From IMG/VR virus record IMGVR_UViG_3300029848_000009: a stretch of DNA of 56,146 nucleotides. The stretch is one strand, 5' to 3'. A program made the translations under genes and the position numbers. This DNA is from a virus. Below, piece by piece: positions 174 to 47,410 of this stretch. The stretch's first letter is position 1, and each line of letters opens with the position of its first letter. The notes below the pieces were generated by a model. It saw nothing but the letters and a program-made list of their open reading frames with translations, made no database searches and was not told the origin of the DNA.

Positions 174-503
174 ATGAAAAGTATTTTGATTCAAACTTAT
201 CTTGTGGCACTTCCGATAGTGCTTGGATATATAGTTTGGCTTCTTAAACAACAAAAGAAAAGCAGGGATGCGAACAGTAAAGGAACAATGCTCCTTTTGC
301 GCGTCCAGCTTATTGAATACCATGCAAAGTACACCAGAATCGGAGAAATACCGTCATATGCCTATCAGAACTTTTGCGAGATGTATGATGCGTACCATGC
401 GTTAGGTGGAAACGGAATGGTTACGAAAATGAAACATGAGATTGAAGAGATTCATATAGGGAAAGGAGATAAAAGCCATGAGGAATTGGAAGGATTGGAC
501 TAA
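174..503 (+). CDS. Small membrane protein with N-terminal TM helix, directly upstream of holin-like gene (possible lysis accessory)
   Basis: ATG 174 preceded by AAGGAG (162-167), same frame as track ORF 84-503. N-terminus MKSILIQTYLVALPIVLGYIVWLL followed by KQQKK. Confidence 0.6.
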   Translation: MKSILIQTYLVALPIVLGYIVWLLKQQKKSRDANSKGTMLLLRVQLIEYHAKYTRIGEIPSYAYQNFCEMYDAYHALGGNGMVTKMKHEIEEIHIGKGDKSHEELEGLD

Positions 504-681
504 GAAAGCCGGAATCAGAGCAATCAAGACTGTTGCACAGGCGGCGATTGCAGGAATTGGAACGGCGGCATTTATGGGCGCGGTGGATTGGAAATATGTT
601 CTTTCTGCATCAGTCCTTGCCGGAGTGTTATCGCTTCTGACAAGTGTTGCCGGAATCCCGGAGGAAAACACCAATGCTTGA
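478..681 (+). CDS. Holin-like two-TM protein (pattern resembles LL-H / Phage_holin_6-type holins)
   Basis: 67 aa with AAAGGAGAT RBS. IRAIKTVAQAAIAGIGTAAF and LSASVLAGVLSLLTSVAGIPEE form two hydrophobic helices with charged ends. Confidence 0.6.
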   Translation: MRNWKDWTKKAGIRAIKTVAQAAIAGIGTAAFMGAVDWKYVLSASVLAGVLSLLTSVAGIPEENTNA

Positions 682-1132
682 CATTAACAAGCAGGAAATG
701 AAGTATTCACAATCCGGTCAGAGGGTATTTATCCCACAAACTGACGAAAATGGAGATATTGTCTATGAAGGGTACAAGGATTCCGATGGGAACTTTGTAC
801 CTTATTTAGATTCCGAAGGCAACAAGATTCCAAAAGGCGAGGAAGTTGAAGGGTTTTCAGAACCTACAACATTCAAAGCCAATATCAGCAATAAGCTGTC
901 AGAAGCCCTTGTGAAAGAATTCGGAATTGATGATAGTACATCATACTGTCAGCTTGTCACGGATAAAGGATATTTGCCACTGAAAGCCGGTGATGTGGTG
1001 TGGAAACGTTCGGAAATCAAACGCACTGATGATGGACTTGTGGATTCAGAAACCGCAGACTACATCGTAAAAGGAGTTGCTGATGAAGGACTGACCACGG
1101 ATTTGTTTCTTCTTCGGAAGAATATTAAGTAG
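674..1132 (+). CDS. Head-tail joining / head-closure candidate (by position only)
   Basis: ATG 674 after GGAGGAAAA, same frame as track ORF 644-1132. Lies between the connector and major tail genes. Confidence 0.45.
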   Translation: MLDINKQEMKYSQSGQRVFIPQTDENGDIVYEGYKDSDGNFVPYLDSEGNKIPKGEEVEGFSEPTTFKANISNKLSEALVKEFGIDDSTSYCQLVTDKGYLPLKAGDVVWKRSEIKRTDDGLVDSETADYIVKGVADEGLTTDLFLLRKNIK

Positions 1133-1140
1133 GTAATCAC

Positions 1141-1683
1141 ATGGCAAAGAAAACTATTTCAATGACACTATCCACTAAATCCATACAAGCCGCCATAAAG
1201 GAATTAGAAAAGTACCGCGATAGTTTACAGGCTAAATGCGATTTACTTGTTTCTAGGCTTGCACAGATAGGTCAGACGGTGGCAATACAACACATATCGG
1301 AATCCCCATTAGGAAACACGATAACGGTAAGGGTAGATAAAGCACCGCAGTTAATGACCTCGAACGCGATTCTCATTGCGACCGGAAAAACGGTAACGTC
1401 AGAAGATAGAGAACCGTTCTATACTTTGTTGGCGGTAGAGTTTGGAGCCGGTATTTTTTATAACTCCGAAGAGAACCCGAAAGCACCGGAACTTGGATTC
1501 GGTGTAGGCACATATCCGGGGCAAATACACGCTTTTGAAGATGGTTGGTACTATTGGGACGATAAGACCGAAACATGGCGTTATACCCACGGTATCAAAG
1601 CCACAATGCCTATGTACAATGCGGAACAACAGATTATTCAACAGTATGTAAAGATTGCAAGGGAGGTATTCGGTGGAAAATGA
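1141..1683 (+). CDS. Head-tail joining / tail-completion candidate (by position only)
   Basis: 180-aa ORF tightly packed in the structural operon upstream of the major tail protein. Confidence 0.45.
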   Translation: MAKKTISMTLSTKSIQAAIKELEKYRDSLQAKCDLLVSRLAQIGQTVAIQHISESPLGNTITVRVDKAPQLMTSNAILIATGKTVTSEDREPFYTLLAVEFGAGIFYNSEENPKAPELGFGVGTYPGQIHAFEDGWYYWDDKTETWRYTHGIKATMPMYNAEQQIIQQYVKIAREVFGGK

Positions 1684-2103: not shown

Positions 2104-2589
2104 ATGGCATCAACAAGTTATAAAACGCGTGTCATTGTAAAAGAGCACACGGAAAAACAGGCCGACTTTGCAGGAACATACAATCTTTTGGTCGCAGCTA
2201 AGTCAGTTCCAAGTCCTGCATCACCACCAAACACTGTTGAATCAACCACAATGGAGGACGATCAACAGACATTCGAGAAAGGCATTAAGACTTCGGATTC
2301 AAGAGAAATCACAGGAAACCTTGAAAAAGAATATCTTTCAAAGGTGGATGGATATGGAGATAAAAAACTTGATATTATCCATCTGTACGGAACGGACGGT
2401 ATTGGCGGCGTTGCAAAATATGCATATGTCGGAACTGCAACAGCCACACCTAACGATGTAGGTGGAAACGATGAAATCCTTGAAATGACGGTAACGGTTA
2501 TTCCAAGTACAGCATCAGAGCTTGTTACAGATAAGCTGACTGTCGTTGATAACAACGATGGTACATTTACCGTAACAGTGGTGGGGTAA
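2104..2589 (+). CDS. Major tail protein
   Basis: 161 aa with GGAAG RBS. Position is immediately upstream of the chaperone pair and tape measure. Ser/Thr/Val-rich beta-type sequence typical of siphovirus tube proteins. Confidence 0.7.
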   Translation: MASTSYKTRVIVKEHTEKQADFAGTYNLLVAAKSVPSPASPPNTVESTTMEDDQQTFEKGIKTSDSREITGNLEKEYLSKVDGYGDKKLDIIHLYGTDGIGGVAKYAYVGTATATPNDVGGNDEILEMTVTVIPSTASELVTDKLTVVDNNDGTFTVTVVG

Positions 2590-2592
2590 AAA

Positions 2593-2644
2593 GCCTATCG
2601 GACGAGCAATCGACCGCACCGGTAGGCGAGGATGATCGGTCGAT
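2593..2644 (+). other. Interleaved complementary segments able to form an H-type pseudoknot (or two mutually exclusive hairpins) just after the major tail stop codon
   Basis: Stem 1 is 2593-2601 gcctatcgg with 2619-2627 ccggtaggc (9 bp, one G-U). Stem 2 is 2609-2616 atcgaccg with 2637-2644 cggtcgat (8 bp perfect). The 5' strand of stem 2 lies inside the stem 1 loop. Confidence 0.5.
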
Positions 2645-3551: not shown

Positions 3552-4241
3552 ATGGCAGTAATTATCGGAAGTGCGCGGCATGATGAACACGGCAACTGCT
3601 ATTCTGGTGGAAAAGCCGGAGACCAGACCGGACAGGAAGTGTCTACGCAGAAGTTTTACAACCATTCTAAGGGATGGAATGTGTTAAGAGCAAAGGATAA
3701 TAAGGTTGCGGAGAAGTTAGCTGAAGCTATGAAGATTGCGTGTGGCAACAAAAACATCGGCTATGACCAATCGGAACGCTACGGAGTCATTAAACATGGC
3801 ATTAGCGCAAAGGTTAAGACGGAATGCGATTGTTCTTCTCTTGTACGCGCTTGTATTATCCATGCATTCGGGAAAGATGTAGGAGATTTCAATACTGCAA
3901 ACGAAAGAATCATTCTTTTGAAATCCGGCTTGTTTACCGATGCTGGTTCTTACCGAATCGGAGAACTGCTTTACAACGGGGACATTCTTGTGACGCGTAC
4001 AAAAGGTCACACTGCAATCGTTGTAAGTGGAGCAAAGAAAAATGCAAGCAAGTATTATTCGATGTATACCGGAAAATCTGGATCAATCGTTGAAGCATTA
4101 AAAGCGGTTGGGGAAGATGATGTGTCAAAAGAACATCGCGCGGAAATCGCAAAAAAGAACGGATTTTCCAATTTTAAGTTTACATCAGAGGAAAATTCAA
4201 AAATGATTTCTCTTCTGAAAAAGGGAAAACTGAAAAAGTAA
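3552..4241 (+). CDS. Putative peptidoglycan hydrolase (NlpC/P60- or CHAP-like Cys/His enzyme) with C-terminal wall-binding-like domain; only lysin candidate in the genome
   Basis: Candidate catalytic Cys in ECDCSSLVRAC and His in TKGHTAIVVSG. GAGG RBS, followed by a strong terminator. Confidence 0.5.
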   Translation: MAVIIGSARHDEHGNCYSGGKAGDQTGQEVSTQKFYNHSKGWNVLRAKDNKVAEKLAEAMKIACGNKNIGYDQSERYGVIKHGISAKVKTECDCSSLVRACIIHAFGKDVGDFNTANERIILLKSGLFTDAGSYRIGELLYNGDILVTRTKGHTAIVVSGAKKNASKYYSMYTGKSGSIVEALKAVGEDDVSKEHRAEIAKKNGFSNFKFTSEENSKMISLLKKGKLKK

Positions 4242-4341: not shown

Positions 4342-7300
4342 ATGGAATTAGAGTCTCTTGAAATAAAAATCCAAGCACAGGCACAACAGGCAAGCGGTCG
4401 GATAGATGCGCTTGTGACAAGACTTGGGAGATTATCTTCCGCGCTTTCTGGACTTAATACCGGAAATCTGAATAGTCTTTCCACAGGGGTAAACCGACTT
4501 GCAGGGGCAATGACGGCAATGCGTGGAATTGACACACGGACTTTTTCTGCGGTTGCAAGAAATATAAGCAAATTAGGCTCTATCAACAGCAAGCAGATTA
4601 ATGCTGCGGCTGGTTCTATGCGTCAGATTTCCAATGCATTAAAAGGGATTTCTGGAATGTCGGCATCCGTTAAGGGTCTGACCGACCTTGCGTCTGCAAT
4701 CAAACAGCTTGGTTACCAGAGTTCCACCAAGGCGATTGAAAATATTCCGAAACTTGCCACGGCAATGCGACAGCTTATGTCCGAATTGTCGAAAGCCCCT
4801 AGCGTAAGCCGGAATATTATTGACATGACAAACGCATTGGCAAAATTATCGCGTACCGGTGGAGCGGCAGGAACAGCGGCAAAAAGCATCACAAGCTCAT
4901 TTAGTGGATTTAGTTCCAGTGCTTCTGCGGTTACCAAGAAGTCGTTTTCTCTTGCGTCTGCAATCGGAAAAGTGTATGCAACGTATTGGGCTTTATTTCG
5001 CGGATTTAGGCTACTTGGAGACGCCATTGACATATCATCCTCACTGACAGAGGTTGAGAACGTTGTAAGGCAGACATTCGGGCAGTATGAAAGCCTAATT
5101 AACAATTTCGCAAAAACATCAATTGAAAAATTCGGTATGTCCGAATTGTCCGCGAAACAGTTTGCAAGCCGTTTCCAAGCCATGGGAACTGCCCTTGATA
5201 TTCCACAAGGAAAAATGGCAAAAATGTCTATCCGGTTGACCGAATTAGCCGGAGATATGGCTTCATTCTATGATGTGAGCCAAGAAGATATTGCCAAGAG
5301 TCTGCAATCTGTATTTTCCGGTACTACGGCACCTATGCGGCGTTATGGTATCGACTTGACACAGGCAACATTAAAGGAATGGGCGTTAAAGCAAGGGCTT
5401 GATGCGAACATTTCCTCAATGACGCAGGCTCAAAAAGCCATGTTGCGTTATCAGTATGTGCTTGCGCATACAACCAATATCACCGGAGACTTTGCACGTA
5501 CAGCCGATACGTGGCATAACCAGATAACCATGCTTAAAGAGAACTTCAAAGCACTTGGAGCGGTCGTTGGTGGTGGTTTAATCAATGCGTTCAAGCCATT
5601 TATCAAGGTACTCAATGCAGTTCTGCAAAAGGTTATTTCCTTCGCAGAAATGGTCACAAATGCTTTAGGTTCAATCTTTGGATGGAGATATGAAGCAAGC
5701 AAAGGGGCAGGAATCAGCGGTCTTGCTGATGATATTGGAAGCGCATCTGACGGCATGGACGATTTAAGTAATGCCGCAGGAAGCGCAGGGAAAAACACGG
5801 GTGGTATCGCAAAAAATGCCAAGAAAGCAAAAAAGGAAATCCAACAGGCAACTCGTGCATTTGATGAATTAAAGGTTATTTCAAAACAAAGTAAAGATAA
5901 TACTTCCGGTTCCGGGAATAAAGGTTCTGGTTCTGGATCTGGTTCAGGTGCTGGTGGCGGCACCGGTGCTGATGGTGGATTAGTTCAGACGGACACCATC
6001 TTTAAGAAATTCAAAAGCAAAATCAAAGACCTTGAACAGTTGGGAGAGTCTATTTCCGGTGCGTTAATTAACGCAATGAAAAAAATTAAATGGGAAAAAG
6101 TGTATGCAAAAGCTGAAGGTTTTGGAAGGGGATTAGCCAAATTCCTTAACGGACTATTTAAAGGGCAAAAAGGAACAACGCTTTTCGGAGAAACCGGAAA
6201 ACTGATCGCAAATTCATTAAACACGGTGCTTCATGGATTGGATTCGTTTGGAACGACATTTAATTGGAAGCAATTTGGAAATTCAATCGCAGACGGAATA
6301 AACAAGTTTTTCCAAAACTTTGACTTTGCATTATTGGCTAAAACGCTTAATTCGTGGGCGCAGGGCGCGTTTGATACAGTTACGACAGCATTAAGTAAAA
6401 TTTCATGGAAGGATGTATGGAACGGAGCAAAGGAGTTTTTAAGCAACCTAGATGTAAAAACAGTTGGAATCATAATCGGTGCGCTGACAATCAAAAAAAT
6501 TCTTGGATTACATCTTGCAAAAACCGCACTTGATATAATCGGAACTTCCATTTCAAAAGCAATAGCTGGTTCACTTGCATCAAGGCTTGGCGTTGAAATT
6601 GCGGCAAATGAGGGAATCTCGGCAGTATTGTCTACCGCTTTGTCAAAAAAAATAGGTGGGGCGTTTGCTACACTTGGAACAACTGTTTCAGCTGGTGTCA
6701 AAGCTTTATTCGGTAGCGGTGCGGCAGAGAGCGCACTTTCTTTTATCAGCCCGGTAGCAAAAGCTATAACCGGGATTGGCTCTGTTGCGATTGGCGCATT
6801 TACTGCAATATCAAACTTTGTGACCATGTTAAAGAACGGATTCAGTTGGCTTAATGAAGCACTTATGCTTGTCGGAGTTACGATTACGGCAGTCGGAGCG
6901 GTTATTTTAGGGGTAGCGGCAGCACCTGCAGCGATTACCGCAGGAATAGTATCCGGTGTTGCAACGGCGGCTGTAGTAGTCAAGGATCATTGGAAAGAAA
7001 TAAAAGGAATTTTCTCAAAAGCAGGAGATTGGTTTAATACTAATGTGATTAAGCCAATAAGCGGTTTTTTTAAGGGATTATGGGAATCTGTTTCCGGTTT
7101 TTTCTCTTCTTTATGGAAAGATATATCCGGTGTATGGAAAACAGTTTCTGGATGGTTCAATACTAATGTTATAACTCCTATTGTTTCATTTTTCCAAGGA
7201 TTTTCGAAAAGAGTTGGTCAAATCTTTCAAGGATTGTGGATCATTGTCAAGGCTGTATGGATTGTTGTTTCTGATTGGTTTAAATCAAAGGTAATAGAGC

Positions 7301-9324: not shown

Positions 9325-10125
9325 ATGAAAAAATCACAACTTATGCTTAAGATTCAAAACGGCATTGAGGTATTTGAGAATCCAATATTCGGACAGATCA
9401 GAATGGTCATGGTCGATGATGAACCTATGTTTTGCCTTATTGATGTTTGCAGGGCATTGGAAATGTCAAACAGCCGTATTGTTGCTGATAGACTAGACGA
9501 GGATGAACGACGTAAGTTAAACTTACCCCGTCAAGGAGAAACTTGGTTTGTTACTGAATCCGGCTTATATGCGGTTATTCTTCGGAGTGACAAACCGAAC
9601 GCAAAGAAGTTTCGCAAGTGGGTAACATCCGAGGTTCTTCCTACAATCCGTAAAACAGGTGGGTATGTCAATAATGATGAATTATTTATTTCCACTTACC
9701 TGCCGTATGCAGATGAAAACACTAAGCTGATATTTTCACAGACATTAAAAACTGTTAGAGAGCAGAACGAAACCATTAAAAGACAGAAGAAAGAAATCAT
9801 CCATAAGGAAGATGTTATTATCGGACTTGTTGATGATATTGACTTGGCAACTAAGAGACAGCGGATAACTCAGATTGTCCGTTTCGGTGCCGATGGAAAG
9901 TATCAAGAACGCTATTCGTTGCTTTATGGAGAATTTGAAAGGAAATATCACTGCAACCTTAAATCAAGGATGGAAGGGTGCGCACTCAAGCCAAAAGTAA
10001 GAAACAAGATGGATTATATCGACAGGGAAATGGGAATGATTCCGCAGTTGTACGAAATCGCTTGCAAACTTTTTGAAAACGATGTAGAAAAGCTGAAATC
10101 TGAATGGGAATCAGTAGTAGCTTAA
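9325..10125 (+). CDS. Bro-N domain antirepressor-like protein (C-terminal ORF6C-like region), moron in tail module
   Basis: FENPIFGQIRMVMVDDEPMFCLIDVCRALE...FRKWVTSEVLPTIRKTGGY is the classic Bro-N pattern. Has its own promoter and terminators. Confidence 0.75.
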   Translation: MKKSQLMLKIQNGIEVFENPIFGQIRMVMVDDEPMFCLIDVCRALEMSNSRIVADRLDEDERRKLNLPRQGETWFVTESGLYAVILRSDKPNAKKFRKWVTSEVLPTIRKTGGYVNNDELFISTYLPYADENTKLIFSQTLKTVREQNETIKRQKKEIIHKEDVIIGLVDDIDLATKRQRITQIVRFGADGKYQERYSLLYGEFERKYHCNLKSRMEGCALKPKVRNKMDYIDREMGMIPQLYEIACKLFENDVEKLKSEWESVVA

Positions 10126-10141
10126 AATTTAATCAAATGGA

Positions 10142-10173
10142 TAGCATCTACCAAACGGTAGGTGCTATTTTTA
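10142..10173 (+). terminator. Intrinsic terminator
   Basis: tagcatctacc aaac ggtaggtgcta followed by ttttta. Confidence 0.75.
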
Positions 10174-10196
10174 TACCCATTTTTAGGAGGTAAACG

Positions 10197-10613
10197 ATGG
10201 GATATGGCGGATATTTAGTAAAGTTTGGTGATTATACCATACCGAACAATTTAATAAAGCAGGACACGTTTAGTTCCTATGTAAACATGCAGGATAAAGA
10301 CCTTTGGACGGATGAAAACGGATATGAGCATCGTGATGCCGTGGAGCTGAAAGCCTTAAAGGTTGAGTTTGAAACCAAAGCCATGCTGACCGAAAAGCAG
10401 TTTGATGATTTTTGGAAGAATATTGAAAAGAACTATACCAAGGCAAAGGAGCGCGGCGGCTATATCACGGCATACGTGCCGGAAAAACGCGGATATGTGA
10501 CACAGTACGGATATATCGCTGATATTCAGCCTACGTTCTATTCTGTGGCACATGGGAAGATAAAGTATGACGCAATCAAATTTTCGTTTGTAGGTGGTGT
10601 ATATGATAAATAG
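10197..10613 (+). CDS. Distal tail protein (Dit) candidate, by position
   Basis: 138 aa with AGGAGG RBS. Overlaps the start of the large tail/baseplate protein. Confidence 0.45.
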   Translation: MGYGGYLVKFGDYTIPNNLIKQDTFSSYVNMQDKDLWTDENGYEHRDAVELKALKVEFETKAMLTEKQFDDFWKNIEKNYTKAKERGGYITAYVPEKRGYVTQYGYIADIQPTFYSVAHGKIKYDAIKFSFVGGVYDK

Positions 10614-21717: not shown

Positions 21718-22503
21718 ATGGCAGAGAACACAGAATTAGTAAAGGCAGAAGAAAAGACAGAGGTTGCAACACACAATAACAAGGTTACCGATTACAGCCT
21801 TGGAATTTTCGGAACATCCGACAATTTCATCATGGCTATGCAGATGGCAAAAGCGTTAGCCGAGTCAACAATAGTTCCGCAGACGTATCAGAAAAATCCA
21901 TCTAACTGTTTGATCGCCATTGAGCAGGCGCAGAGAATGCACATCAGCCCACTTATGGTTATGCAGAACCTTTTTCTGATACAGGGCAAGCCAAGCTGGA
22001 GCAGTAAGTTTTTGATCGCGTCTATCAATGCCAGCAACAAATTCGACATGGAGTTGCAGTACGACGAAACCAAGGACAAGAACGGAAAACCTTATTCTTG
22101 CACTGCGTGGACTATGAAAAATGGTCGAAGAATTGAGGGCATGGAAGTTAATATGCAGATGGCAGATGATGAAGGTTGGACGAAGAAGAACGGTAGCAAG
22201 TGGAAAACAATGCCGCAGTTAATGCTTCGTTACAGAGCGGCATCATTCTTCTCTAGTCTGAATTGCCCTGAACTAACAATGGGACTTTATACCAAGGAAG
22301 AAATCGAGGATGGCGATTTCAAGGAATATCCGATGGAAGATTTACAGAAACAGGTCAAGCGTGATATTACGGAGAACGCCAACAGTGAGCCATTTGTTAC
22401 GGCGGAACCTTGTTCAACCGAAAGTGCAGCAGTCGAGCCAGAGAAAGTAGCCGGAGAAGTTGCTGAGAATGACGAGAATGTACCGGACTTTATGAAAGAT
22501 TAG
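21718..22503 (+). CDS. Single-strand annealing recombinase (RecT/Redbeta superfamily)
   Basis: KWKTMPQLMLRYRAASFFSSLNCPELTMGLYTKEE parallels the Redbeta PWQSHPKRMLRHKAMIQCARLAFGFAGIYDKDE region. Acidic C-terminal tail. Confidence 0.6.
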   Translation: MAENTELVKAEEKTEVATHNNKVTDYSLGIFGTSDNFIMAMQMAKALAESTIVPQTYQKNPSNCLIAIEQAQRMHISPLMVMQNLFLIQGKPSWSSKFLIASINASNKFDMELQYDETKDKNGKPYSCTAWTMKNGRRIEGMEVNMQMADDEGWTKKNGSKWKTMPQLMLRYRAASFFSSLNCPELTMGLYTKEEIEDGDFKEYPMEDLQKQVKRDITENANSEPFVTAEPCSTESAAVEPEKVAGEVAENDENVPDFMKD

Positions 22504-34039: not shown

Positions 34040-34267
34040 ATGAAATTTACAAAATTCATTAAGCCAGAACTTGAATACATTAAAGAAAATGCCAATTTCA
34101 CGGAAGAAGAGGAGAGGATTTTCTCTCTTCTCTGCCGTGGTTTTTCACAAAAGCAAATATCCACAAAAGAAAATCTATCACTAAGAACGATAGAGTACAG
34201 AGTGAGAGATATAAAAGATAAAATAGAAAGAACGGGGGTATTTGATTGGATGAAAAAGAACTGTTGA
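34040..34267 (+). CDS. Small LuxR/GerE-type HTH regulator (75 aa)
   Basis: FTEEEERIFSLLCRGFSQKQISTKENLSLRTIEYRVRDIKDKI fits the LuxR/GerE HTH pattern. Confidence 0.6.
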   Translation: MKFTKFIKPELEYIKENANFTEEEERIFSLLCRGFSQKQISTKENLSLRTIEYRVRDIKDKIERTGVFDWMKKNC

Positions 34268-35442
34268 AATATGCCGTTGATAGTGGTATTCTCGACATAG
34301 CACTTGTGCAGAAACAAGTCACTATGCAAAAGAGAGAAAAATTACTCAACAAAAATCCCTATAAAATCTATCAAGGAAAGGATGAGAACTGGTACTCATA
34401 TCTGCCGGATGAAGTTAAAGGCAGACGTAAAATCAAGGCAAAGCGTAGAGAAGCGGTCGAGCAGAAAATCATTGATTATTGGAAAGAGAGAGAGGATGAC
34501 CCTACAGTAGAGGAAATCTTCAATCGTTGGATTTCACAAAAGCTGGAACTTGAAGAAATCAGCAGGGCAACCTATGACAGATACTTAATGGACTTTCAGA
34601 GATACTTTGACGGTATCAAAGATAAGAAAATCAAAAGAATAGACGAATGCGACCTTGAAACGTTTATACGAAACAGCATCCATGATTTCAACATGACTTC
34701 CAAGGCATTCTCAAACTTCCGAACGCTGATTTATGGAATCTTTAAGTATGCCAAGCGGAAGAAGTATGTCAAGTTTTCCATTACATACACGCTGAAAGAC
34801 ATGGACATATCGCCAAAAGCGTTTAAGCACGTAGTCCGACAGGCAAAAGACCAAGTATATATGCCGGATGAAAAGGAGCGCATGGAGATGTATCTTAGGA
34901 ATCACTTAGATATCGTGAACCTTGGATTGTTATTCATGTTTAAGACAGGGGTTCGTGTCGGGGAATTGTCGGCATTAAAGCGGAAAGATGTTGAAAACTA
35001 CACGGTTGCTATCAATTCTACAGAAACACGCTATCGGGATGATGATGGTTTTCACTATGAGGTCAAAGATTTTCCGAAATCAGAAGCCGGATTGCGATTT
35101 GCAATATTGCCAGATAAGTACAAATGGATTCTTGATGAAGTACGAAAGAGAAATCCCTTCGGGGAATATCTATTTGAGAGAGATGGAGAACGGTTGAAAT
35201 CCTACAACTTTCGTGAACGTTTGCGGTACATCTGTGAACACGAACTGCGAATGAAAGTGAAATCTCCGCACAAAATCCGAAAGACGTATGGAAGTATCTT
35301 GCTTGACGGAAAAGTGAAAGAGTCCACAATCCTTGATACTATGGGGCATACAGACATTAGTTGCACAAAAGATCATTATTATTTTGATCGTACCGGAATT
35401 GAGGAAAAGAGACAGGAACTTGACTTAATCGAAGCATTATGA
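34246..35442 (+). CDS. int: Tyrosine integrase
   Basis: C-terminal catalytic pattern: GVRVGEL...HKIRKTYGSILL...LGHTDISCTKDHYYF (R..HxxR..Y). attP-like region lies immediately downstream. Confidence 0.85.
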   Translation: MDEKELLKYAVDSGILDIALVQKQVTMQKREKLLNKNPYKIYQGKDENWYSYLPDEVKGRRKIKAKRREAVEQKIIDYWKEREDDPTVEEIFNRWISQKLELEEISRATYDRYLMDFQRYFDGIKDKKIKRIDECDLETFIRNSIHDFNMTSKAFSNFRTLIYGIFKYAKRKKYVKFSITYTLKDMDISPKAFKHVVRQAKDQVYMPDEKERMEMYLRNHLDIVNLGLLFMFKTGVRVGELSALKRKDVENYTVAINSTETRYRDDDGFHYEVKDFPKSEAGLRFAILPDKYKWILDEVRKRNPFGEYLFERDGERLKSYNFRERLRYICEHELRMKVKSPHKIRKTYGSILLDGKVKESTILDTMGHTDISCTKDHYYFDRTGIEEKRQELDLIEAL

Positions 35443-35449
35443 GTCCCTA

Positions 35450-35612
35450 GTACTCAAAGGTACTCAAAGAAAAATTGATAGAATGGCTATTTTAAGCCAT
35501 TTCAAGGCAATTACTCTAGGGTTCGATTCTCGTACGGACTGTTTTTAAAGTCGCATAAACACTGTGTTTGCGGCGTCTTAAAAAACTTTGGTACTCAAAA
35601 TGGTACTCAAAA
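35450..35612 (+). mobile_element. attP region: tRNA 3'-end-like core flanked by two pairs of GTACTCAAA(G/A) arm-type repeats
   Basis: GTACTCAAAG at 35450 and 35460. GTACTCAAAA at 35591 and 35603. Core GGGTTCGATTCTCGTACGGACT at 35519-35540. Palindrome ATGGCTattttaAGCCAT at 35483-35500. Confidence 0.6.
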
Positions 35613-35677
35613 ATTGAACACAAAAGAAAGGAGTCTGCGCAAGTGCTTTAGATTCTTTTCTGAAAATGGTAGACTTG

Positions 35678-40204: not shown

Positions 40205-40915
40205 ATGGAGGAATTAGAAAAATTGGAAATTCCAGCAATCAAAGTTTGGGATTCTCAAAGGGTTGTAACTTTTAATGATATAGACAGAGTACATCAAAGA
40301 CCTAACGGAACGGCAAAGCGTAGTTTTAAACAAAATAGAAAACATTTTATTTTGAACGAAGATTACTTTGAATTAACAAGAAAAGAGTTCGGGACGAATT
40401 TCGTCCCTAATTCCGAACCGTTAAAAGGGAACCCGAATTTGAAAGTCTTTTTATTTACAGAAACAGGATATTTAATGCTTGTAAAGTCATTCCATGATGA
40501 TTTGTCTTGGAAAGTGCAAAGAAGACTTGTAAGCTCATATTTCAATTGTGGAAAGTTGCAAAACGAAGTGATAAATCGAAGTGATGTACCGCAACCGCAT
40601 GAAGGTCATTATCCATCGTTGGCTAACACTTGGATGAAAGACCATGAACCTCTATTTAAGCAGATTTGTAGTGCCTATGGGATCAGCAGAAAGGAACTGT
40701 ACCACAAGATATTGTTGGATATTGGGGATGATTATAATGTTGATGATTATAGAGTTTTCTATAAGCGCGATACCGGACACGCGCCAGAGTATATCATGGA
40801 GGTTGTATCGTTTTATCCAGAATTAAGGGAAGCGGCAGAAACTATCATACAGATACACATGAATAGAGTTAGAAGGTACCCAAAAGAGTATTTAGGGCAT
40901 ATATATAACAGATAA
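40205..40915 (+). CDS. ORF6N/KilA-N-type antirepressor-like protein
   Basis: SQRVVTFNDIDRVHQRPNGTAKRSFKQNRKHFILNEDYFELTRKE fits the ORF6N pattern. Confidence 0.55.
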   Translation: MEELEKLEIPAIKVWDSQRVVTFNDIDRVHQRPNGTAKRSFKQNRKHFILNEDYFELTRKEFGTNFVPNSEPLKGNPNLKVFLFTETGYLMLVKSFHDDLSWKVQRRLVSSYFNCGKLQNEVINRSDVPQPHEGHYPSLANTWMKDHEPLFKQICSAYGISRKELYHKILLDIGDDYNVDDYRVFYKRDTGHAPEYIMEVVSFYPELREAAETIIQIHMNRVRRYPKEYLGHIYNR

Positions 40916-40930
40916 AAGATAATTCACAAA

Positions 40931-41025
40931 CAAAGGGCAGATTTTCCGGCTGTCTTTTTCTTTTTGCCATATCCAAAAAACAACAACGCTTCCGGGCATA
41001 TCTCACAAAATCTTTCGCAAAAAAT
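40931..41025 (+). repeat. Imperfect ~95-bp direct repeat, copy A (terminator hairpin plus conserved tail); copy B at 43951-44040
   Basis: caaagggcagattttccggctgtctttttctttttgccatatccaaaa..gggcatatctcacaaaatct aligns with copy B at roughly 80 percent identity. Confidence 0.8.
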
Positions 41026-41116
41026 GAAACGTGACAACTTTTCAGAAAAGGAAATGCGGCAGATTGCGGATGCATTGGGGCTTGATTTAGAAATTGTAAT
41101 GAAAGAGAAGAAATAA
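41024..41116 (+). CDS. Short ORF (30 aa), possibly a remnant of an HTH-protein C-terminus
   Basis: MKRDNFSEKEMRQIADALGLDLEIVMKEKK, followed by a terminator. Confidence 0.25.
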   Translation: MKRDNFSEKEMRQIADALGLDLEIVMKEKK

Positions 41117-41117
41117 G

Positions 41118-41142
41118 AAAACCCGCCTAACTGGCGGGTTTT
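41118..41142 (+). terminator. Intrinsic terminator
   Basis: aaaacccgcc taactg gcgggtttt. Confidence 0.75.
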
Positions 41143-41421
41143 GATGAAAGAAAATTTTTCCCGCGCCCCAAAAAATATTTCGTAATTTTTTTGTACCCCC
41201 CTGGGGTAGCGTTTTTGGGGTCAAGATTCCATTTTCACGGATTCTCAAAAACGTGTAACAAACATGCAATTATCTGCGATATCCCGCAAATAACACAAAT
41301 ACACTATATGCTATGCCATATATAGATAATCCATTGATGATATTTGATGATATTGCCGATCACAGGCAAACGCCAGAAGACGCCTGCCCGGCTATAGTTA
41401 TAGTCTAGCATAGACCGCATT

Positions 41422-41667
41422 TTACCACTTGTCAAGATAGTTTTTCCCATTGTACCGGCTGTAAGTGTGTGTTATGCTTTCCAACTTTTGCGTGATCTGC
41501 AACCAATCACCGCCACGTTGGGCTGTTATTTTGATTTTTGCAGATTCCACCCATTCCACGCCTTCAAATTTCGAGTATCCGCACATTTTGCCGGATTCCA
41601 CAGGATAGCCAAGAGCATCCACCCGGCGCAAAATCTCCCTTTTACCGATATACTCATATTTTTCCAT
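41422..41667 (-). CDS. Hypothetical protein (last gene of leftward operon)
   Basis: 81 aa with GGAGGTGTAGAAG RBS. Confidence 0.55.
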   Translation of the reverse strand: MEKYEYIGKREILRRVDALGYPVESGKMCGYSKFEGVEWVESAKIKITAQRGGDWLQITQKLESITHTYSRYNGKNYLDKW

Positions 41668-41821
41668 CTTCTACACCTCCAGAAGTTCCGCGCTCGCTCA
41701 TGCAGATATCTTTGCATCCGTTGCGCGCTAACTGGTTAACGATCAGCCACGCTTGCAAATCTCCATACGCTACCCGGCGCACAGCTTGCCCCTTAAAAGT
41801 TGCCTTAATATCATAGGTCAT
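41654..41821 (-). CDS. Small hypothetical protein (55 aa)
   Basis: ATG 41821 after AAGGAGGTGTGAATCC. The track ORF extends upstream to 41866. Confidence 0.5.
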   Translation of the reverse strand: MTYDIKATFKGQAVRRVAYGDLQAWLIVNQLARNGCKDICMSERGTSGGVEDGKI

Positions 41822-41886
41822 GGATTCACACCTCCTTGTATTGTGTTTATTTATTAATGCGCTCATGGAAACTGATTTCCATGCAA

Positions 41887-41933
41887 TCCGCGTTCCCGGA
41901 ATCGAACCGGAACGAAGTCACCAGACACGCGAA
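41887..41933 (-). ncRNA. tRNA-like acceptor/T-arm minihelix 1 (no D or anticodon arm)
   Basis: The - strand reads TTCGCGT-(15 nt)-TCCGG-TTCGATT-CCGGG-A-ACGCGGA. It is intergenic, between 41955-42218 and 41654-41821. Confidence 0.45.
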
Positions 41934-41954
41934 GAAGGGCGGAAGAGTACCGCC

Positions 41955-42218
41955 TTAAATTACAACAAAATCCCCTTGGAATCCTGTTGTTATAATCATT
42001 TTTCCGTCAGATCTGCGGTACACAACGCCGCAACCGTCCGCAAAAGTTGACCACACGAGCCATCCGGGCGGTGTAAGTTTTTCCCCGGTTTTATAATCCA
42101 GGAATGAGTAACGCGGAATAACGCCACTTTTTTCTTGATCTAGCGCGTTGTTAATTGCTTGCGATTCTGTTACGATCTGCACACCTTTTCCCGTGTGCAA
42201 AATATATCTTTCTTCCAT
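41955..42218 (-). CDS. Hypothetical protein
   Basis: 87 aa with AAAGAGGTATAAGAA RBS. Confidence 0.55.
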   Translation of the reverse strand: MEERYILHTGKGVQIVTESQAINNALDQEKSGVIPRYSFLDYKTGEKLTPPGWLVWSTFADGCGVVYRRSDGKMIITTGFQGDFVVI

Positions 42219-42259
42219 TTCTTATACCTCTTTCCTTTTATTTGCTCATTTTTGAGTAA

Positions 42260-42303
42260 TGGCAAGCCGGGGAATCGAACCCCGGAAAACTCCGCCGCTT
42301 GCC
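42260..42303 (-). ncRNA. tRNA-like acceptor/T-arm minihelix 2 (44 nt)
   Basis: The - strand reads GGCAAGC-GGCGGAGTTTTC-CGGGG-TTCGATT-CCCCG-GCTTGCC-A. It has a perfect 7-bp acceptor and 5-bp T stem, and starts on the last base of the upstream stop codon. Confidence 0.55.
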
Positions 42304-42659
42304 TAACTTGCTAAAATCTGCCGTGCTGTATTAAATACATAGAGCCGGTTGTGGCTGTGGCGTTTAAAATCTCCATTTTCAGCAATCACACGCCCACTAT
42401 TTGGATATTTGAGGCTTACAACGGTCAAATACTTGTTTAGCAGTTCATCCGGGCATTTTAGGCATTCTATAGCGTTTTCAATGGTGCTTTTCTTGCTATT
42501 CCAGTAAATGCCCTCAATGCGTACGCCTTTTTCTTTTTCCAGTTCGTCAAATTCTTTCATCAGTTCCGCTTTTGTCATAAAATCAACCAACCTTTCATTA
42601 TTCAAAAATGAACCCGTAGCCGCTATTTCGTGCTGCTCTCTGAAATTCTTCTTTTCCAT
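42303..42659 (-). CDS. Hypothetical protein (start uncertain; may be fused to 42598-42744 by a frameshift)
   Basis: ATG 42659 lacks an RBS. The track ORF extends to 42707. It overlaps the upstream ORF by about 60 nt in another frame. Confidence 0.45.
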   Translation of the reverse strand: MEKKNFREQHEIAATGSFLNNERLVDFMTKAELMKEFDELEKEKGVRIEGIYWNSKKSTIENAIECLKCPDELLNKYLTVVSLKYPNSGRVIAENGDFKRHSHNRLYVFNTARQILAS

Positions 42660-42744
42660 ACTTTTGATACATCTTTTCAAGATTTGCGGAAATGTCAAAC
42701 CCTGCAAGTTTTAACTCAAACAATATTTGTATTTTGTCGTCCAT
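42598..42744 (-). CDS. Small hypothetical protein or N-terminal part of a frameshifted gene
   Basis: ATG 42744 after AAAGGGAAAAT. Ends at ...GFIFE-TAA, right after a T5 run. Confidence 0.4.
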   Translation of the reverse strand: MDDKIQILFELKLAGFDISANLEKMYQKYGKEEFQRAARNSGYGFIFE

Positions 42745-42821
42745 ATTTTCCCTTTCTGGTCTGCCATCATCAGAGCCGGGCGACCATCCCACGGCTGACG
42801 CTCCAGATCGGAGCGTTTCGG

Positions 42822-43019
42822 CTATGCTATGCAGATTTCAAATACATCGCCTTGGACGTGTTCAAAATCGACTTTTTCAAAAATGCCGATTCCGTAAAAG
42901 TCGGCTGTGAGTTCTCCGAAGTGGTTATACTCAAACGCGATTCCGTTCTTTTTCAGTTCGTTGATCGCGTCACCGTTCTTTGTTGTTTCCCATGTAAAAC
43001 GCATTCCCGTCTTTCTCAT
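42822..43019 (-). CDS. Hypothetical protein
   Basis: 65 aa with GGGAGGGCTTAAAT RBS. Confidence 0.55.
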   Translation of the reverse strand: MRKTGMRFTWETTKNGDAINELKKNGIAFEYNHFGELTADFYGIGIFEKVDFEHVQGDVFEICIA

Positions 43020-43032
43020 ATTTAAGCCCTCC

Positions 43033-43209
43033 CTATAAAATTTCCGAAAGCTGTAAAATCTGCGCTTCGCTCAAATGGTCAATAACAACATTCCCGTTTA
43101 CGTCACTCAATTCGTATTCATCCGGGAGAGTGGTAAAACCGTCAAACTGGTTCGAAATATAAAACCCTTTTCTTTCTAATAATGTTTCTGCCGCTTTCAT
43201 ATTTTTCAT
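43033..43209 (-). CDS. Hypothetical protein (first gene of leftward operon)
   Basis: ATG 43209 after GCGAGGTTACAAC. The track ORF extends to 43404 through the promoter region. Confidence 0.5.
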   Translation of the reverse strand: MKNMKAAETLLERKGFYISNQFDGFTTLPDEYELSDVNGNVVIDHLSEAQILQLSEIL

Positions 43210-43251
43210 GTTGTAACCTCGCTTTCGTGTTTCATTTGATATACTAATAGT

Positions 43252-43376
43252 ACACGATAATAGATTATAATACAATTGACACAATACGCGAAAATAGACG
43301 ACACAAAACAGCAGTTTATTGTGCAATATGATACATGAGAATAGACGTTGACATGGTGTGAAAAATCTATTATCAT
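43252..43376. promoter_or_regulatory. Divergent promoter/operator region of the XRE cassette
   Basis: The box ACACGATAATAGATTAT occurs at 43252-43268 and again at 43653-43669. AATAGAC occurs at 43293, 43340 and 43635. The promoter is TTGACA 43348-43353 / TATCAT 43371-43376. Confidence 0.55.
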
Positions 43377-43402
43377 ATATAAAAAGAAAAGAGGTGTGAC
43401 GC

Positions 43403-43624
43403 ATGGCGAATTATGGTGCAAACGGATATATTGACTTTTCCAAGCTGTGGAATGTCTTAGAAAAAAAGGAATACAATAAGCAGTGGTTAAAGAATAACGG
43501 AATCCATTCTAATACAGTGGCAAAGCTGACAAAAAATGAAAATGTAACTTGTGAGGTTATATGTAATCTATGCAGACTGCTAAATTGTCAGCCGGGCGAT
43601 ATTATGGAATATAAAAATAATTAA
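43403..43624 (+). CDS. XRE-family HTH regulator
   Basis: LWNVLEKKEYNKQWLKNNGIHSNTVAKLTKNENVTCEVICNLCRLLNCQPGDIMEY is an HTH_26-like pattern. Confidence 0.7.
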   Translation: MANYGANGYIDFSKLWNVLEKKEYNKQWLKNNGIHSNTVAKLTKNENVTCEVICNLCRLLNCQPGDIMEYKNN

Positions 43625-43719
43625 AATACATGAAAATAGACTATTGACATATACACGATAATAGATTATTATAAAGCTGTCGGAAGACAATAGCCGGGCA
43701 AGCGGAGAAAGGAGAACAA

Positions 43720-46521: not shown

Positions 46522-46592
46522 TGGGCTATCGCCAAACGGTAAGGCACAGGATTTTGATTCCTGCATTCCGGGTTCGAATCCCGGTAGCCTAA
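46522..46592 (+). tRNA. tRNA-Gln (anticodon UUG)
   Basis: Acceptor TGGGCTA/TAGCCTA. Anticodon stem CAGGA/TCCTG with loop TTTTGAT. T arm CCGGG-TTCGAAT-CCCGG. U1-A72 is typical of bacterial tRNA-Gln. Confidence 0.85.
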
Positions 46593-46819
46593 TCGGTTGC
46601 ATGTTGACGTTTCATGTAGCCACGTATGTTTTCCATACGTACTTGAACCCTTGGTTGAGTGATTCAAGCATTTGGGTTCCTCCTTTCGCCACTAGGACGA
46701 TTCTGTTAAGGACGGTGCGAGACCGTCCGGTGGTATTCTATCATGCGTCTATCCCACGGCGCATGATCGTGTAACGCATAGCACGTAAAACATATTGCTA
46801 ACCGTCTCGTGGCGGTTAT

Positions 46820-46890
46820 GATCGGTTAGTCGAGCGGTAAGACACCACCCTTTCACGGTGGTAACACGAGTTCAAATATCGTACCGATCA
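46820..46890 (+). tRNA. tRNA-Glu (anticodon UUC) with a non-canonical T arm
   Basis: Acceptor GATCGGT/ACCGATC. Anticodon stem CCACC/GGTGG with loop CTTTCAC. T arm ACGAG-TTCAAAT-ATCGT has a G53-A61 mismatch. Confidence 0.6.
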
Positions 46891-46896
46891 TTGTAT

Positions 46897-46968
46897 TGGG
46901 ATTTAATTCAGTGGTAGAAGACACGGCTTATATCCGGGTTGTCGCGGGTTCGATTCCTGCAATCCCAA
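46897..46968 (+). tRNA. tRNA-Ile-like (anticodon UAU)
   Basis: Acceptor TGGGATT/AATCCCA. Anticodon stem CACGG/CCGGG (one A-G mismatch) with loop CTTATAT. T arm GCGGG-TTCGATT-CCTGC. Confidence 0.55.
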
Positions 46969-47108
46969 CGCGTTGTAAAATATTGTTTATGTGACAAGGC
47001 TGACGAGTTTTGGTGTAATGAATGATGTTTTTCTTGTGATGGAAGCGTTGTCGACTTAAAAAGCGTGGAAATAGGACGATGAAAGTTCGTTTACGATATA
47101 TAGAAAAT

Positions 47109-47196
47109 TTTGCAGTGTTCCCATAACGGTATTGGAACGGCTTGCTAAGCCGCCGGGCGTTTGTTCGCCTTGCAGGTTCGAATCCTGTGTACGGCG
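47109..47196 (+). tRNA. tRNA-Ser(GCU)-like pseudo-tRNA (long variable arm, acceptor strands do not pair)
   Basis: Loop TTGCTAA at 47142-47148. Variable arm GGCG/CGCC. T arm GCAGG-TTCGAAT-CCTGT at 47172-47188. The 5' tttgcag and 3' gtacggc strands are not complementary. Confidence 0.3.
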
Positions 47197-47410
47197 TTTG
47201 CTCGAAAAAATCGGGCGTTGATATGTGGCGAAAAAGGTAAACGCTATTGCCGTAAGATAATTCGTTGAAACCGGCAACCTAGATGACGAGAAGTGCACTA
47301 ATCATGCATGGTGCAAATCCATGCCATATCAATTCAATTACATTTATTACACACAAAAGACGCGGAATCTCACGAGGATTCCGATTTTTGCTATGATTGG
47401 GGGCGTAAGA

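Follow-up and report, generated by a model that had tools for sequence, protein, structure and literature searches.

That long transcripts can be divided at structured elements embedded in them is a known principle, represented by transfer RNA (tRNA) punctuation, by the MALAT1-mascRNA system and by ribozyme punctuation in prophages. Tandem hammerhead ribozymes occur in prophages, including in Clostridium scindens, and have been proposed to cut long phage transcripts into single-gene messenger RNAs (mRNAs) (Perreault et al. 2011, PMC3088659). In Bacillus subtilis, RNase Z cuts CCA-less tRNA precursors 3' of the discriminator base, is blocked by CCA and is poor on long 5' leaders; precursors without CCA are also cleaved in vivo by RNase P, which is the first to act if the 5' leader is long (PMC1874595, citing Pellegrini 2003). 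The present analysis concerns two short elements, minihelix 2 (MH2; 42260-42303) and minihelix 1 (MH1; 41886-41933), read on the minus strand of a viral DNA of 56,146 nucleotides (nt), IMG/VR record IMGVR_UViG_3300029848_000009, the whole of which is called the window. Both resemble the acceptor and T arms of a tRNA, and minihelices of this kind are minimal substrates of RNase P, tRNase Z and the CCA-adding enzyme. The idea that they punctuate an mRNA is thus a variant of the known principle; neither Rfam 15 nor full-text literature searches aimed at the elements gave an earlier description of them.

MH2 and MH1 are real elements, and they are not tRNA genes, transfer-messenger RNA (tmRNA), phage attachment (att) cores or members of an Rfam family. 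An original prediction had described them as tRNA-like acceptor/T-arm elements in the intercistronic gaps of a co-directional operon, and both this description and the sequences, coordinates and strand given there held when the minus strand was read again. The sequence comparisons support reading them as tRNA mimics. Moreover, they appear to represent a widespread class in temperate gut phages of Clostridia, placed at the cistron boundaries of a mosaic leftward operon. MH2, an anticodon-arm-less mimic without an encoded CCA, pairs the acceptor 5' strand GGCAAGC (42303-42297) with the 3' strand GCTTGCC (42267-42261), which is followed by the discriminator A (42260). Between the two strands lie the linker GGCGGAGTTTTC (42296-42285), which contains a GG, and a T arm made of CGGGG (42284-42280), TTCGATT (42279-42273) and CCCCG (42272-42268). 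The two stems, of 7 and 5 base pairs (bp), are entirely Watson-Crick. As had been predicted, the element starts on the last base of a stop codon: G42303 is at once its position +1 and the third base of the TAG of the upstream open reading frame (ORF), ORF B. The discriminator is followed by AUUAC, not a U tract, with UUA at positions 74-76, and 3 nt after it stands the 4-bp hairpin CTCA-AAAA-TGAG (42256-42245), the start of the 5' untranslated region (UTR) of the next gene, ORF C. (The acceptor 5' strand is present a second time, as AGCAAGT, at 42306-42312 on the minus strand, inside the end of ORF B and 2 nt upstream of GGCAAGC. The covariance model described below preferred this copy, and similar duplicated TTAGCAAG motifs occur in two relatives, L023 and L007.)

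MH1, the second mimic, is less regular. Its acceptor strands are TTCGCGT (41933-41927) and ACGCGGA (41893-41887), its linker has 15 nt, and its T arm reads TCCGG-TTCGATT-CCGGG (41911-41895); an extra A (41894) separates the T arm from the acceptor, and the discriminator is T41886. The stems again have 7 and 5 bp, two G·U pairs among them, with one extra junction nucleotide, although the extra A could alternatively form a sixth T-stem pair (TTCCGG/CCGGGA). A mini-hairpin in the linker, GTC-TGGT-GAC, is D-like, but its register varies among variants and it is not counted as a supported helix. Downstream comes UUGCA, again not a U tract, with UGC at positions 74-76; after the discriminator T and two further bases follows an 8-bp hairpin, CATGGAAA-TCAG-TTTCCATG (41883-41864), also present in the original prediction. 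On its other side MH1 is preceded by a GC-rich hairpin, GGCGG-TACTCTT-CCGCC (41954-41938), placed directly after the ORF C stop, and by a T-rich stretch of 4-5 nt. In 18 distinct relatives this GC hairpin does not vary and all of it is paired, and an analogous hairpin with a T run precedes the corresponding elements of L115 and L140, which belong to another family (MH3). Many relatives have TTGACA after the hairpin downstream of MH1. A promoter there was considered and rejected, because only about 35 nt remain to the start codon and the ribosome-binding site (RBS) occupies the place of the -10 box.

Both elements show the features of a tRNA top half: an acceptor/T stack of about 12 bp, the TTCGATT loop, which is a 7-nt loop of the form T-T-C-R-A-N-N closed by a G53-C61 pair, and an unpaired discriminator. 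Substrates of the RNase Z of Firmicutes lack CCA at positions 74-76, and no variant has CCA there. How far does this exceed chance? The T-arm core GGTTCGATTCC, with at most one mismatch allowed, occurs six times in the window against 0.68 expected, and the six matches are three genuine tRNAs, MH1, MH2 and one site beside the integrase gene. The comparative set comprised about 240 related loci (about 2.2 megabases (Mb) of DNA fetched, mainly from IMG/VR; labelled L001 onward). A loose descriptor of the minihelix proved uninformative, with 10.8 matches per shuffled window, and a strict one was adopted in its place; it matches 1.3 times per 2.2 Mb of shuffled sequence, or about 0.03 times per window, whereas the window has two matches and the 2.2 Mb of loci have 203. 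A covariance model, R1, was built from relatives on an N-padded alignment of equal-length sequences (A2) from which the MH1 bulge had been removed. It scores MH2 at 49.6 bits and MH1 at 36.3 bits, the latter including an insertion penalty for the removed bulge, and the next best site in the window reaches 15.1 bits. (A plain MAFFT alignment of MH2 variants, A1, had mis-registered the 5' strand and was discarded.) By folding energy alone the minihelices are weakly unusual, with z values of -2.0 and -1.0.

The elements were compared with each of the known classes that they might represent. ARAGORN and Rfam, at the gathering score, call just four tRNAs in the window, at 46522-47197 on the other strand, which excludes tRNA genes. 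The spacing of 12-15 nt between acceptor and T stem agrees with the prediction that D and anticodon arms are missing. Nor are the elements fragments of a longer tRNA gene preserved in relatives, a point on which the original prediction was open to refutation: in a scan of 93 loci, among them all 80 with ORF C, ARAGORN called no tRNA at either slot. ARAGORN finds no tmRNA either; the 17-nt T arm alone matches the beta_tmRNA model, at 12.2 bits, and the acceptor pair 3-70 is C-G, not the G·U of tmRNA. The mascRNA-menRNA family (RF01684) aligns end to end with MH2 at 24.9 bits (E = 0.013) against a gathering score of 42.5, and this alignment deletes the internal arms; L019 scores 18.8 bits. None of the known self-cleaving ribozymes searched for (hammerhead, twister, twister-sister, pistol, hatchet and HDV-like) matches over MH1 or MH2 at E <= 10. 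As to intrinsic terminators, a scan of 40800-43700 reported only a site at 41142-41118 on the minus strand and one site on the plus strand, so that the window copies are not of this kind, although UUUU does follow the copies of MH2, and of a related element called MHx, in some relatives.

An att core was also rejected, in keeping with the original prediction, which had argued that the elements are not remnants of one. The tyrosine integrase gene (34246-35442, plus strand) and the probable attP, together at 34.2-35.6 kilobases (kb), lie 6.3 kb from the minihelices. Beside the integrase gene is a T-loop and 3'-acceptor fragment, GGTTCGATTCTCGTACGGACTG (35520-35541), flanked by two direct repeats of GTACTCAAAG (35450-35469) and two of GGTACTCAAAA (35591-35614), and the region 35450-35614 is probably an attP with arm-type sites. 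There is no host tRNA that matches the minihelices: the 24-nt 3' half of MH2 was found as part of a tRNA in none of 185,579 species-representative genomes. Two of these genomes do contain it, in both cases as the same minihelix, in a phage-like context and not called as a tRNA.

ORF C has 159 related stretches, and 80 IMG/VR loci that carry it were retrieved; MH1 is present in all 80 and MH2 in 75. A second sample, collected with a pattern for the lineage of the hammerhead ribozyme found in the same operon, added more than 110 further IMG/VR loci on contigs of 5-160 kb, and altogether more than 150 related phage contigs have kept the minihelices. Clustering of the flanking ORFs shows a mosaic operon, that is, a fixed frame with variable cassettes. 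With families numbered F1 and upward, the order is (F3/F18)(F4/F15), hammerhead, (F9/F11/F14/F23/F24)(F6/F16/F20/F22), MH2, (optional F8/F12/F17), F2, MH1, (F10), F1. Copies related to those in the window are also present in contigs of metagenome-assembled genomes (MAGs) of Roseburia and Eubacteriales.

There are at least eight minihelix families, with unrelated stem sequences and one shared geometry: the acceptor has 6-7 bp and the T stem 5 bp, with a TTCRANN loop; GG is present in every 5' linker, of 8-18 nt; and a discriminator base, but no CCA, is encoded. The acceptor is GGCAAG/CTTGCC in the MH2 family, TTCGCGT/RCGYGGA in the MH1 family and GCCGYTY/GGGCGGC in the MH3 family, which occupies the MH1 slot of L090, L115 and L140. 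Three further families have AGCTAAT/ATTAGCT (L158), AGTGACG/CGTCACT (L141) and GGTAACG/CGTTACC (L167 and L195). Yet another, AGCGGTT...CAGGG-TTCGATT-CCCTG-TGCCGCT, is found only in some relatives, beside their genuine tRNA clusters and on the tRNA strand (L004 at about 4830-4880, minus strand; L104 3133-3181; L111 5591-5639; L122 256-304; L174 7665-7713; L194 662-710; L208 5681-5729), and has no copy in the window. The long linkers fold into hairpins of 3-5 bp with the GG in the loop, as in GTAAG-ACAGG-CTTAC, TGCA-GGCGG-TGCA and GTC-TGGT-GAC, and such a hairpin resembles an analogue of the D loop that may dock on the T loop. (At the end of one contig, L090 1-25 on the minus strand, the sequence after a TAA stop reads AAGCAAGCCGGGGTTGTTCC, which could be a linkerless MH2-like element cut by the contig end.)

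The original prediction had looked to related phages for conservation and for changes in the paired positions, and there the stems are kept and show both G·U pairs and compensatory changes. Over all families, taken as 96 distinct sequences in an alignment that was itself fitted to the model, standard pairs fill 96.0% of the cells, compared with 76.5% after shuffling and 33-65% when the partners are slid, and changes on both sides occur in 9 of the 12 pairs. For the MH1 region an independent MAFFT alignment of 18 distinct sequences gave 99.1% of cells paired, and 99.2% in the acceptor. Five of the seven MH1 acceptor pairs vary on one side only, always by way of G·U, and this one-sided drift points to a constraint on the RNA of this strand. 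(One variant, L106, has A-U at MH1 pair 4-69.) Among 65 distinct MH2 variants, pair 1-72 is A-U in 24, G-C in 20, G·U in 16 and A·C in 4. The T loop is TTCRANN in 63 of the 65; every MH1 variant has T[T/C]C[G/A/C]ATT, and the other families again have TTCRANN.

The surroundings of the minihelices are conserved as well. The distance from the stop codon to the element ranges from -4 to +16 nt across contexts, and position +1 overlaps or abuts the stop in most of them, MH2 of the window included; in others the stop is 3-16 nt away on the upstream side. On the other side, 84% of 73 distinct sequence contexts, against 30% of shuffles, have a hairpin that begins 2-4 nt past the discriminator, and the mean folding energy of this downstream region is -6.1 kcal/mol, against -2.7 in shuffles. 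The hairpins have more than ten different stem sequences, among them CCGG/CCGG, CCCGG/CCGGG, CTCA/TGAG, CCTC/GAGG, AGCCGAC/GTCGGCT, CATGGAAA/TTTCCATG, GTGAGTAC/GTACTCAC and GTGGGTG/CACCCAC. The one after MH1 is 100% paired, with compensatory double changes in 6 of its 8 pairs (18 sequences). Beyond the hairpin lie an A-rich segment and the RBS of the following gene.

The same operon also contains a ribozyme. A type II hammerhead at 42755-42823 on the minus strand (Rfam RF02276, 67.9 bits against a gathering score of 37) begins 2 nt inside the stop codon of the ORF at 42822-43019 and ends 10 nt before the start of the next gene, ORF A. It is conserved upstream of MH2 in many relatives and is the first punctuation element of the leftward operon. 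In about 45 of the first 100 IMG/VR loci of its lineage, a minihelix lies 230-1700 nt downstream on the same strand. Among 11 hammerhead loci without a minihelix match, L187 has three tandem hammerheads (299-1448, minus strand) and L145 has two (2234-2634, minus strand). In L135, another of the eleven, a hammerhead (548-617) is followed 0.9 kb downstream by a pistol ribozyme (1434-1501, plus strand). Similarly, Dulem virus 39 (L093, PP511791), arranged like the window with a helix-turn-helix (HTH) gene divergent from a leftward operon, has no minihelix and carries hammerheads in two successive intercistronic slots (3995-4062 and about 4480-4545, minus strand). The second of these (GAAAC ... 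CTGATGAG) was seen by eye and is not in the Rfam list at the gathering score. Judged from the position of its GUC, the hammerhead of the window would give an upstream RNA that ends in stem III and a downstream RNA that begins with stem I, and ends of the same sort would come from the minihelix modules.

What, then, are the minihelices for? That MH2 and MH1 serve as RNase P and RNase Z processing signals, at which the polycistronic mRNA would be cut to leave structured ends, is the best-supported reading, and we give it an even chance. The operon would be transcribed as one RNA, and each mimic would fold into a tRNA-like elbow recognised by the enzymes with which the host processes its tRNA ends. 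RNase P would cut 5' of position +1 and RNase Z after the discriminator (N73), possibly followed by CCA addition. The polycistronic RNA would thereby be split at the same kind of position as by self-cleavage of the upstream hammerhead. A minihelix of about 45 nt would be set free or would stay as a 3' cap, so that the 3' structure of the upstream mRNA would be the minihelix itself or, in the case of MH1, the GC hairpin before it. The downstream mRNA would begin 2-4 nt before its hairpin, which would then form a 5'-proximal protective structure. This reading gains support because the slots are shared with hammerhead and pistol ribozymes and because the hairpin stands 2-4 nt past the predicted RNase Z site. 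The punctuation role named in the original prediction has thus gained comparative support, and the 3' end stabiliser named beside it agrees with the model, being one of its components; for the decoy of tRNA-targeting defences, the third role named there, the comparison gave no evidence in either direction. We infer every step beyond the folding of the RNA: co-transcription, recognition by the enzymes, cleavage and stabilisation. The broader proposal is that gut phages evolved anticodon-less mimics of tRNA by which RNase P, RNase Z and perhaps also the CCA-adding enzyme of the host are turned to the punctuation of phage mRNAs, as an interchangeable counterpart, dependent on protein enzymes, of the self-cleaving ribozymes in the same operons. 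It is offered tentatively, at rather less than an even chance. Excised, CCA-tailed minihelices might additionally act as decoys.

Several observations sit uneasily with processing by tRNA enzymes. MH2 is missing from 5 of the 80 ORF C loci, and variants that have lost the 5' acceptor strand (L015 and L085) or the 3' strand (L018 and L027) persist. In L142 and L173 the stems are kept and the T-loop consensus is lost. The MHx element, which is absent from the window, has 75 copies in intercistronic positions (L019 3917-3962, L028, L063 and about 70 others). It reads (TAG/TAA)CCGCCG-CAGAGGATGCNC-GCCGG-ATCACTA-CCGGC-GGCGG-TTTT, fills the position that MH2 has in the window, immediately ahead of the ORF C UTR hairpin, and has no Rfam match. 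It shares the Y shape and the abutment on a stop codon with the minihelices, but its loop, ATCACTA, is non-canonical and it ends in a U run. Together with the loop loss in L142 and L173, this suggests that strict tRNA mimicry is not always required. Furthermore, most of the double changes among the 96 sequences are differences between families, which may stem from independent captures of tRNAs. The T stem hardly varies within the MH2 family, with 2 compensatory changes (CCGGG/CCCGG in L136, and GGCGG/CCGCC in L192, for which L115 is a one-sided intermediate) against about 6 disruptive ones, so that conservation of the T arm could act at the level of DNA. Finally, an RNase P cut at +1 of MH2 would fall inside the UAG and give a non-stop ORF B mRNA, which is awkward unless it is regulatory. 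As a corollary of the broader proposal, such a stop-less mRNA would couple processing to tmRNA-mediated shut-off or to restoration of the stop by a tail.

A purely structural role as attenuator or stabiliser, or a role for the excised RNA, is possible. In the latter case the RNA of about 45 nt would be the product, a CCA-tailed decoy, sponge or competitor aimed at toxins or enzymes with an affinity for the top half of tRNA (acceptor-stem nucleases, nucleotidyltransferase toxins, TruB/TrmA, EF-Tu or synthetases), and its position in the operon would serve expression only. The conserved elbow features (T loop, linker GG, 12-bp stack and discriminator) would suit such a product, as would the setting, an operon of small genes next to the lysogeny switch, a region in which counter-defence genes are frequent, and the anticodon-less element inside the real tRNA clusters of relatives. 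We nevertheless consider it unlikely. The conserved hairpin 2-4 nt downstream, the tight abutment on stop codons and RBSs and the interchange with ribozymes in the same slots would all be left unexplained, and since the acceptor sequences are unrelated among families, no single synthetase or toxin identity is mimicked. In addition, most known tRNA-directed defence nucleases target anticodon loops, which the minihelices do not have. A structured intercistronic RNA that involves no tRNA enzymes, acting instead as a leaky attenuator, a leaky terminator or an obstacle to exonucleases, with its tRNA likeness inherited and a role in differential expression within the operon, is distinctly unlikely as well. 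The 4-5 T run after many MH2 variants and all MHx copies would fit it, as would the GC hairpin and T run before MH1 and the Y shape that MHx, L142 and L173 retain without a canonical T loop. Read-through, which must occur because there is no room for promoters before the downstream genes, would fit too. However, the terminator scan calls neither element of the window, where AUUAC and UUGCA follow, and a plain hairpin would need neither the T-loop consensus nor a GG in every linker.

The mosaic structure of the operon raises another possibility, namely that the minihelices are linkers at the DNA level, islands of 25-45 bp that promote the exchange of cassettes between co-infecting phages, their tRNA origin being incidental. 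The homology of relatives to the window often ends exactly at or inside MH2, whose 5' part moves with the upstream gene and whose 3' part moves with the downstream gene, making the minihelices module junctions. Crossovers inside the invariant T arm give recombinants with G·U and even A·C at pair 1-72, and the phage has a weak RecT match (21718-22503). On the other hand, any conserved functional island between variable cassettes would show crossovers likewise, which makes them non-discriminating. Exchange of DNA would explain neither the same helix lengths and loop across unrelated families, nor the strand-specific G·U drift, the constant co-orientation with transcription and the co-varying downstream hairpins, and we regard it as quite improbable. 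Under the processing model, the near-invariant T arm would also serve as a crossover point for module exchange, as a side effect. The phages do carry tRNA clusters and a tRNA-directed integrase, and some minihelix variants are broken, so decaying tRNA pseudogenes or scars of integration or excision, now without function, also have to be considered. Against this, the elements keep their places in 75-80 of 80 loci, and in many other phage backgrounds, even as the genes around them are replaced; ARAGORN called nothing intermediate, with a D or an anticodon arm, in the 93 loci that it scanned, no host tRNA corresponds to the minihelices and the attP lies elsewhere. This origin is highly improbable. 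A translational device acting at the stop codon, in termination, re-initiation or ribosome rescue, or else a new self-cleaving ribozyme, is very improbable. The overlap or abutment of +1 with the stop in most contexts would favor the former, and a gene neighbourhood in which new ribozyme classes were found the latter, but the distance from the stop varies, no ribozyme family matches, and the conserved nucleotides are those of a tRNA elbow, not of a plausible catalytic core.

In the window, the minus strand carries, in order of transcription, two small ORFs, the hammerhead, ORF A, ORF B, MH2 and its hairpin, ORF C, the GC hairpin, MH1, the 8-bp hairpin, ORF D, ORF E and a terminator. ORF A (42598-42744; 48 amino acids (aa), family F11) occurs in 14 loci with varying downstream partners. 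ORF B (42303-42577; 91 aa, F22) had been predicted to extend from 42659 to 42303. Its stop stands, whereas the start is more likely the ATG at 42577, as homology suggests, since the separate 48-aa gene fills 42744-42598. ORF C (41955-42218; 87 aa, F2) has MH2 and MH1 on either side, and its UTR hairpin also follows MHx in relatives. ORF D (41654-41821; 55 aa, F10) precedes ORF E (41422-41667; 81 aa, F1), the most conserved gene of the operon. The leftward operon probably ends at the 10-bp, GC-rich hairpin with a T run at 41118-41142, the sole strong terminator-like site on its strand, from which ORF E is separated by about 280 nt of seemingly non-coding DNA. The seven small proteins of the operon have no match in PHROGs, Pfam, NCBIfam or PADLOC. 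The operon is divergent from a Cro/CI-type HTH gene (43403-43624) and convergent with an anti-repressor gene.

The window belongs to a temperate gut phage of Clostridia that is siphovirus-like. The best GenBank relatives of its portal, which is of the SPP1 type, are uncultured phages from human faeces and Dulem virus 39. The phage also encodes DnaB, a replisome organiser, SSB and the RecT-like protein mentioned above. In the GenBank phage collection, only the hammerhead is shared, with MT835516 and Dulem virus 39. Its four tRNAs (46522-47230, plus strand), Gln-TTG, Glu-TTC, Ile-TAT and Ser-GCT, all lack an encoded CCA, as do all the mimics. (A hairpin, GCTCG-AAAAAAT-CGGGC, stands 3 nt after the discriminator of tRNA-Ser, a spacing like that after the minihelices. 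In one relative, L145, a ROOL RNA is found beside a tRNA array, 9696-10279.)

If the processing model is true, phages use the tRNA-maturation enzymes of the host as a general tool for processing mRNA, in a bacterial-virus version of mitochondrial tRNA punctuation. It would also give a functional reason why hammerhead, pistol and twister ribozymes cluster in the operons of phages, all being interchangeable "cut here" modules with protection of the ends. The mimic, 3 nt and the hairpin would together form a portable module of about 60 nt, with a potential use in synthetic operons of Firmicutes. In any case the minihelices are an uncatalogued class of RNA, with several families and more than 200 matches to the strict descriptor, none of them in Rfam 15, and they are a warning in annotation that a T-arm match in a phage genome need not be an att site or a tRNA pseudogene.

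Of the known systems, the tandem hammerhead, pistol and twister ribozymes of prophages share the niche of the minihelices, and even the operon; they too abut stop codons and RBSs, the slots are interchangeable, and the cutting of transcripts into gene-length mRNAs has been proposed for them as well. The minihelices, however, have no ribozyme core and would need protein or RNA enzymes of the host. In the punctuation of mitochondrial transcripts by RNase P and RNase Z/ELAC2, tRNA-shaped elements likewise lie directly between cistrons, and the RNase P cut can also fall inside a stop codon, the resulting U or UA ends being completed by polyadenylation. The phage elements differ in lacking an anticodon arm and in not being functional tRNAs; their enzymes are presumed to be bacterial, a conserved downstream hairpin belongs to the module, and processing is predicted. 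The mascRNA of MALAT1 and MEN-beta (RF01684) is, similarly, a non-decoding tRNA-like structure embedded in a long transcript, where RNase P and RNase Z form the end of the upstream RNA and release a small CCA-tailed RNA. This system is eukaryotic and nuclear, and its RNA keeps D- and anticodon-like arms; the phage elements are not homologous to it. The tRNA-like domain of tmRNA and the tRNA-like modules of bacterial Y RNA (YrlA) also lack an anticodon arm and have an acceptor, a T arm and an analogue of the D loop, but they are domains of larger stand-alone RNAs, with a tag ORF and pseudoknots in the one and a Ro-binding stem in the other, whereas the minihelices are 44-48 nt long and lie inside an mRNA. 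In the tufB operon of E. coli and the tRNA region of T4, host tRNA-processing enzymes separate mRNA from tRNA-shaped RNA, as is proposed for the minihelices. Those RNAs are genuine tRNAs or transient, non-conserved structures, in contrast to the dedicated and conserved family of mimics that the minihelices appear to form.

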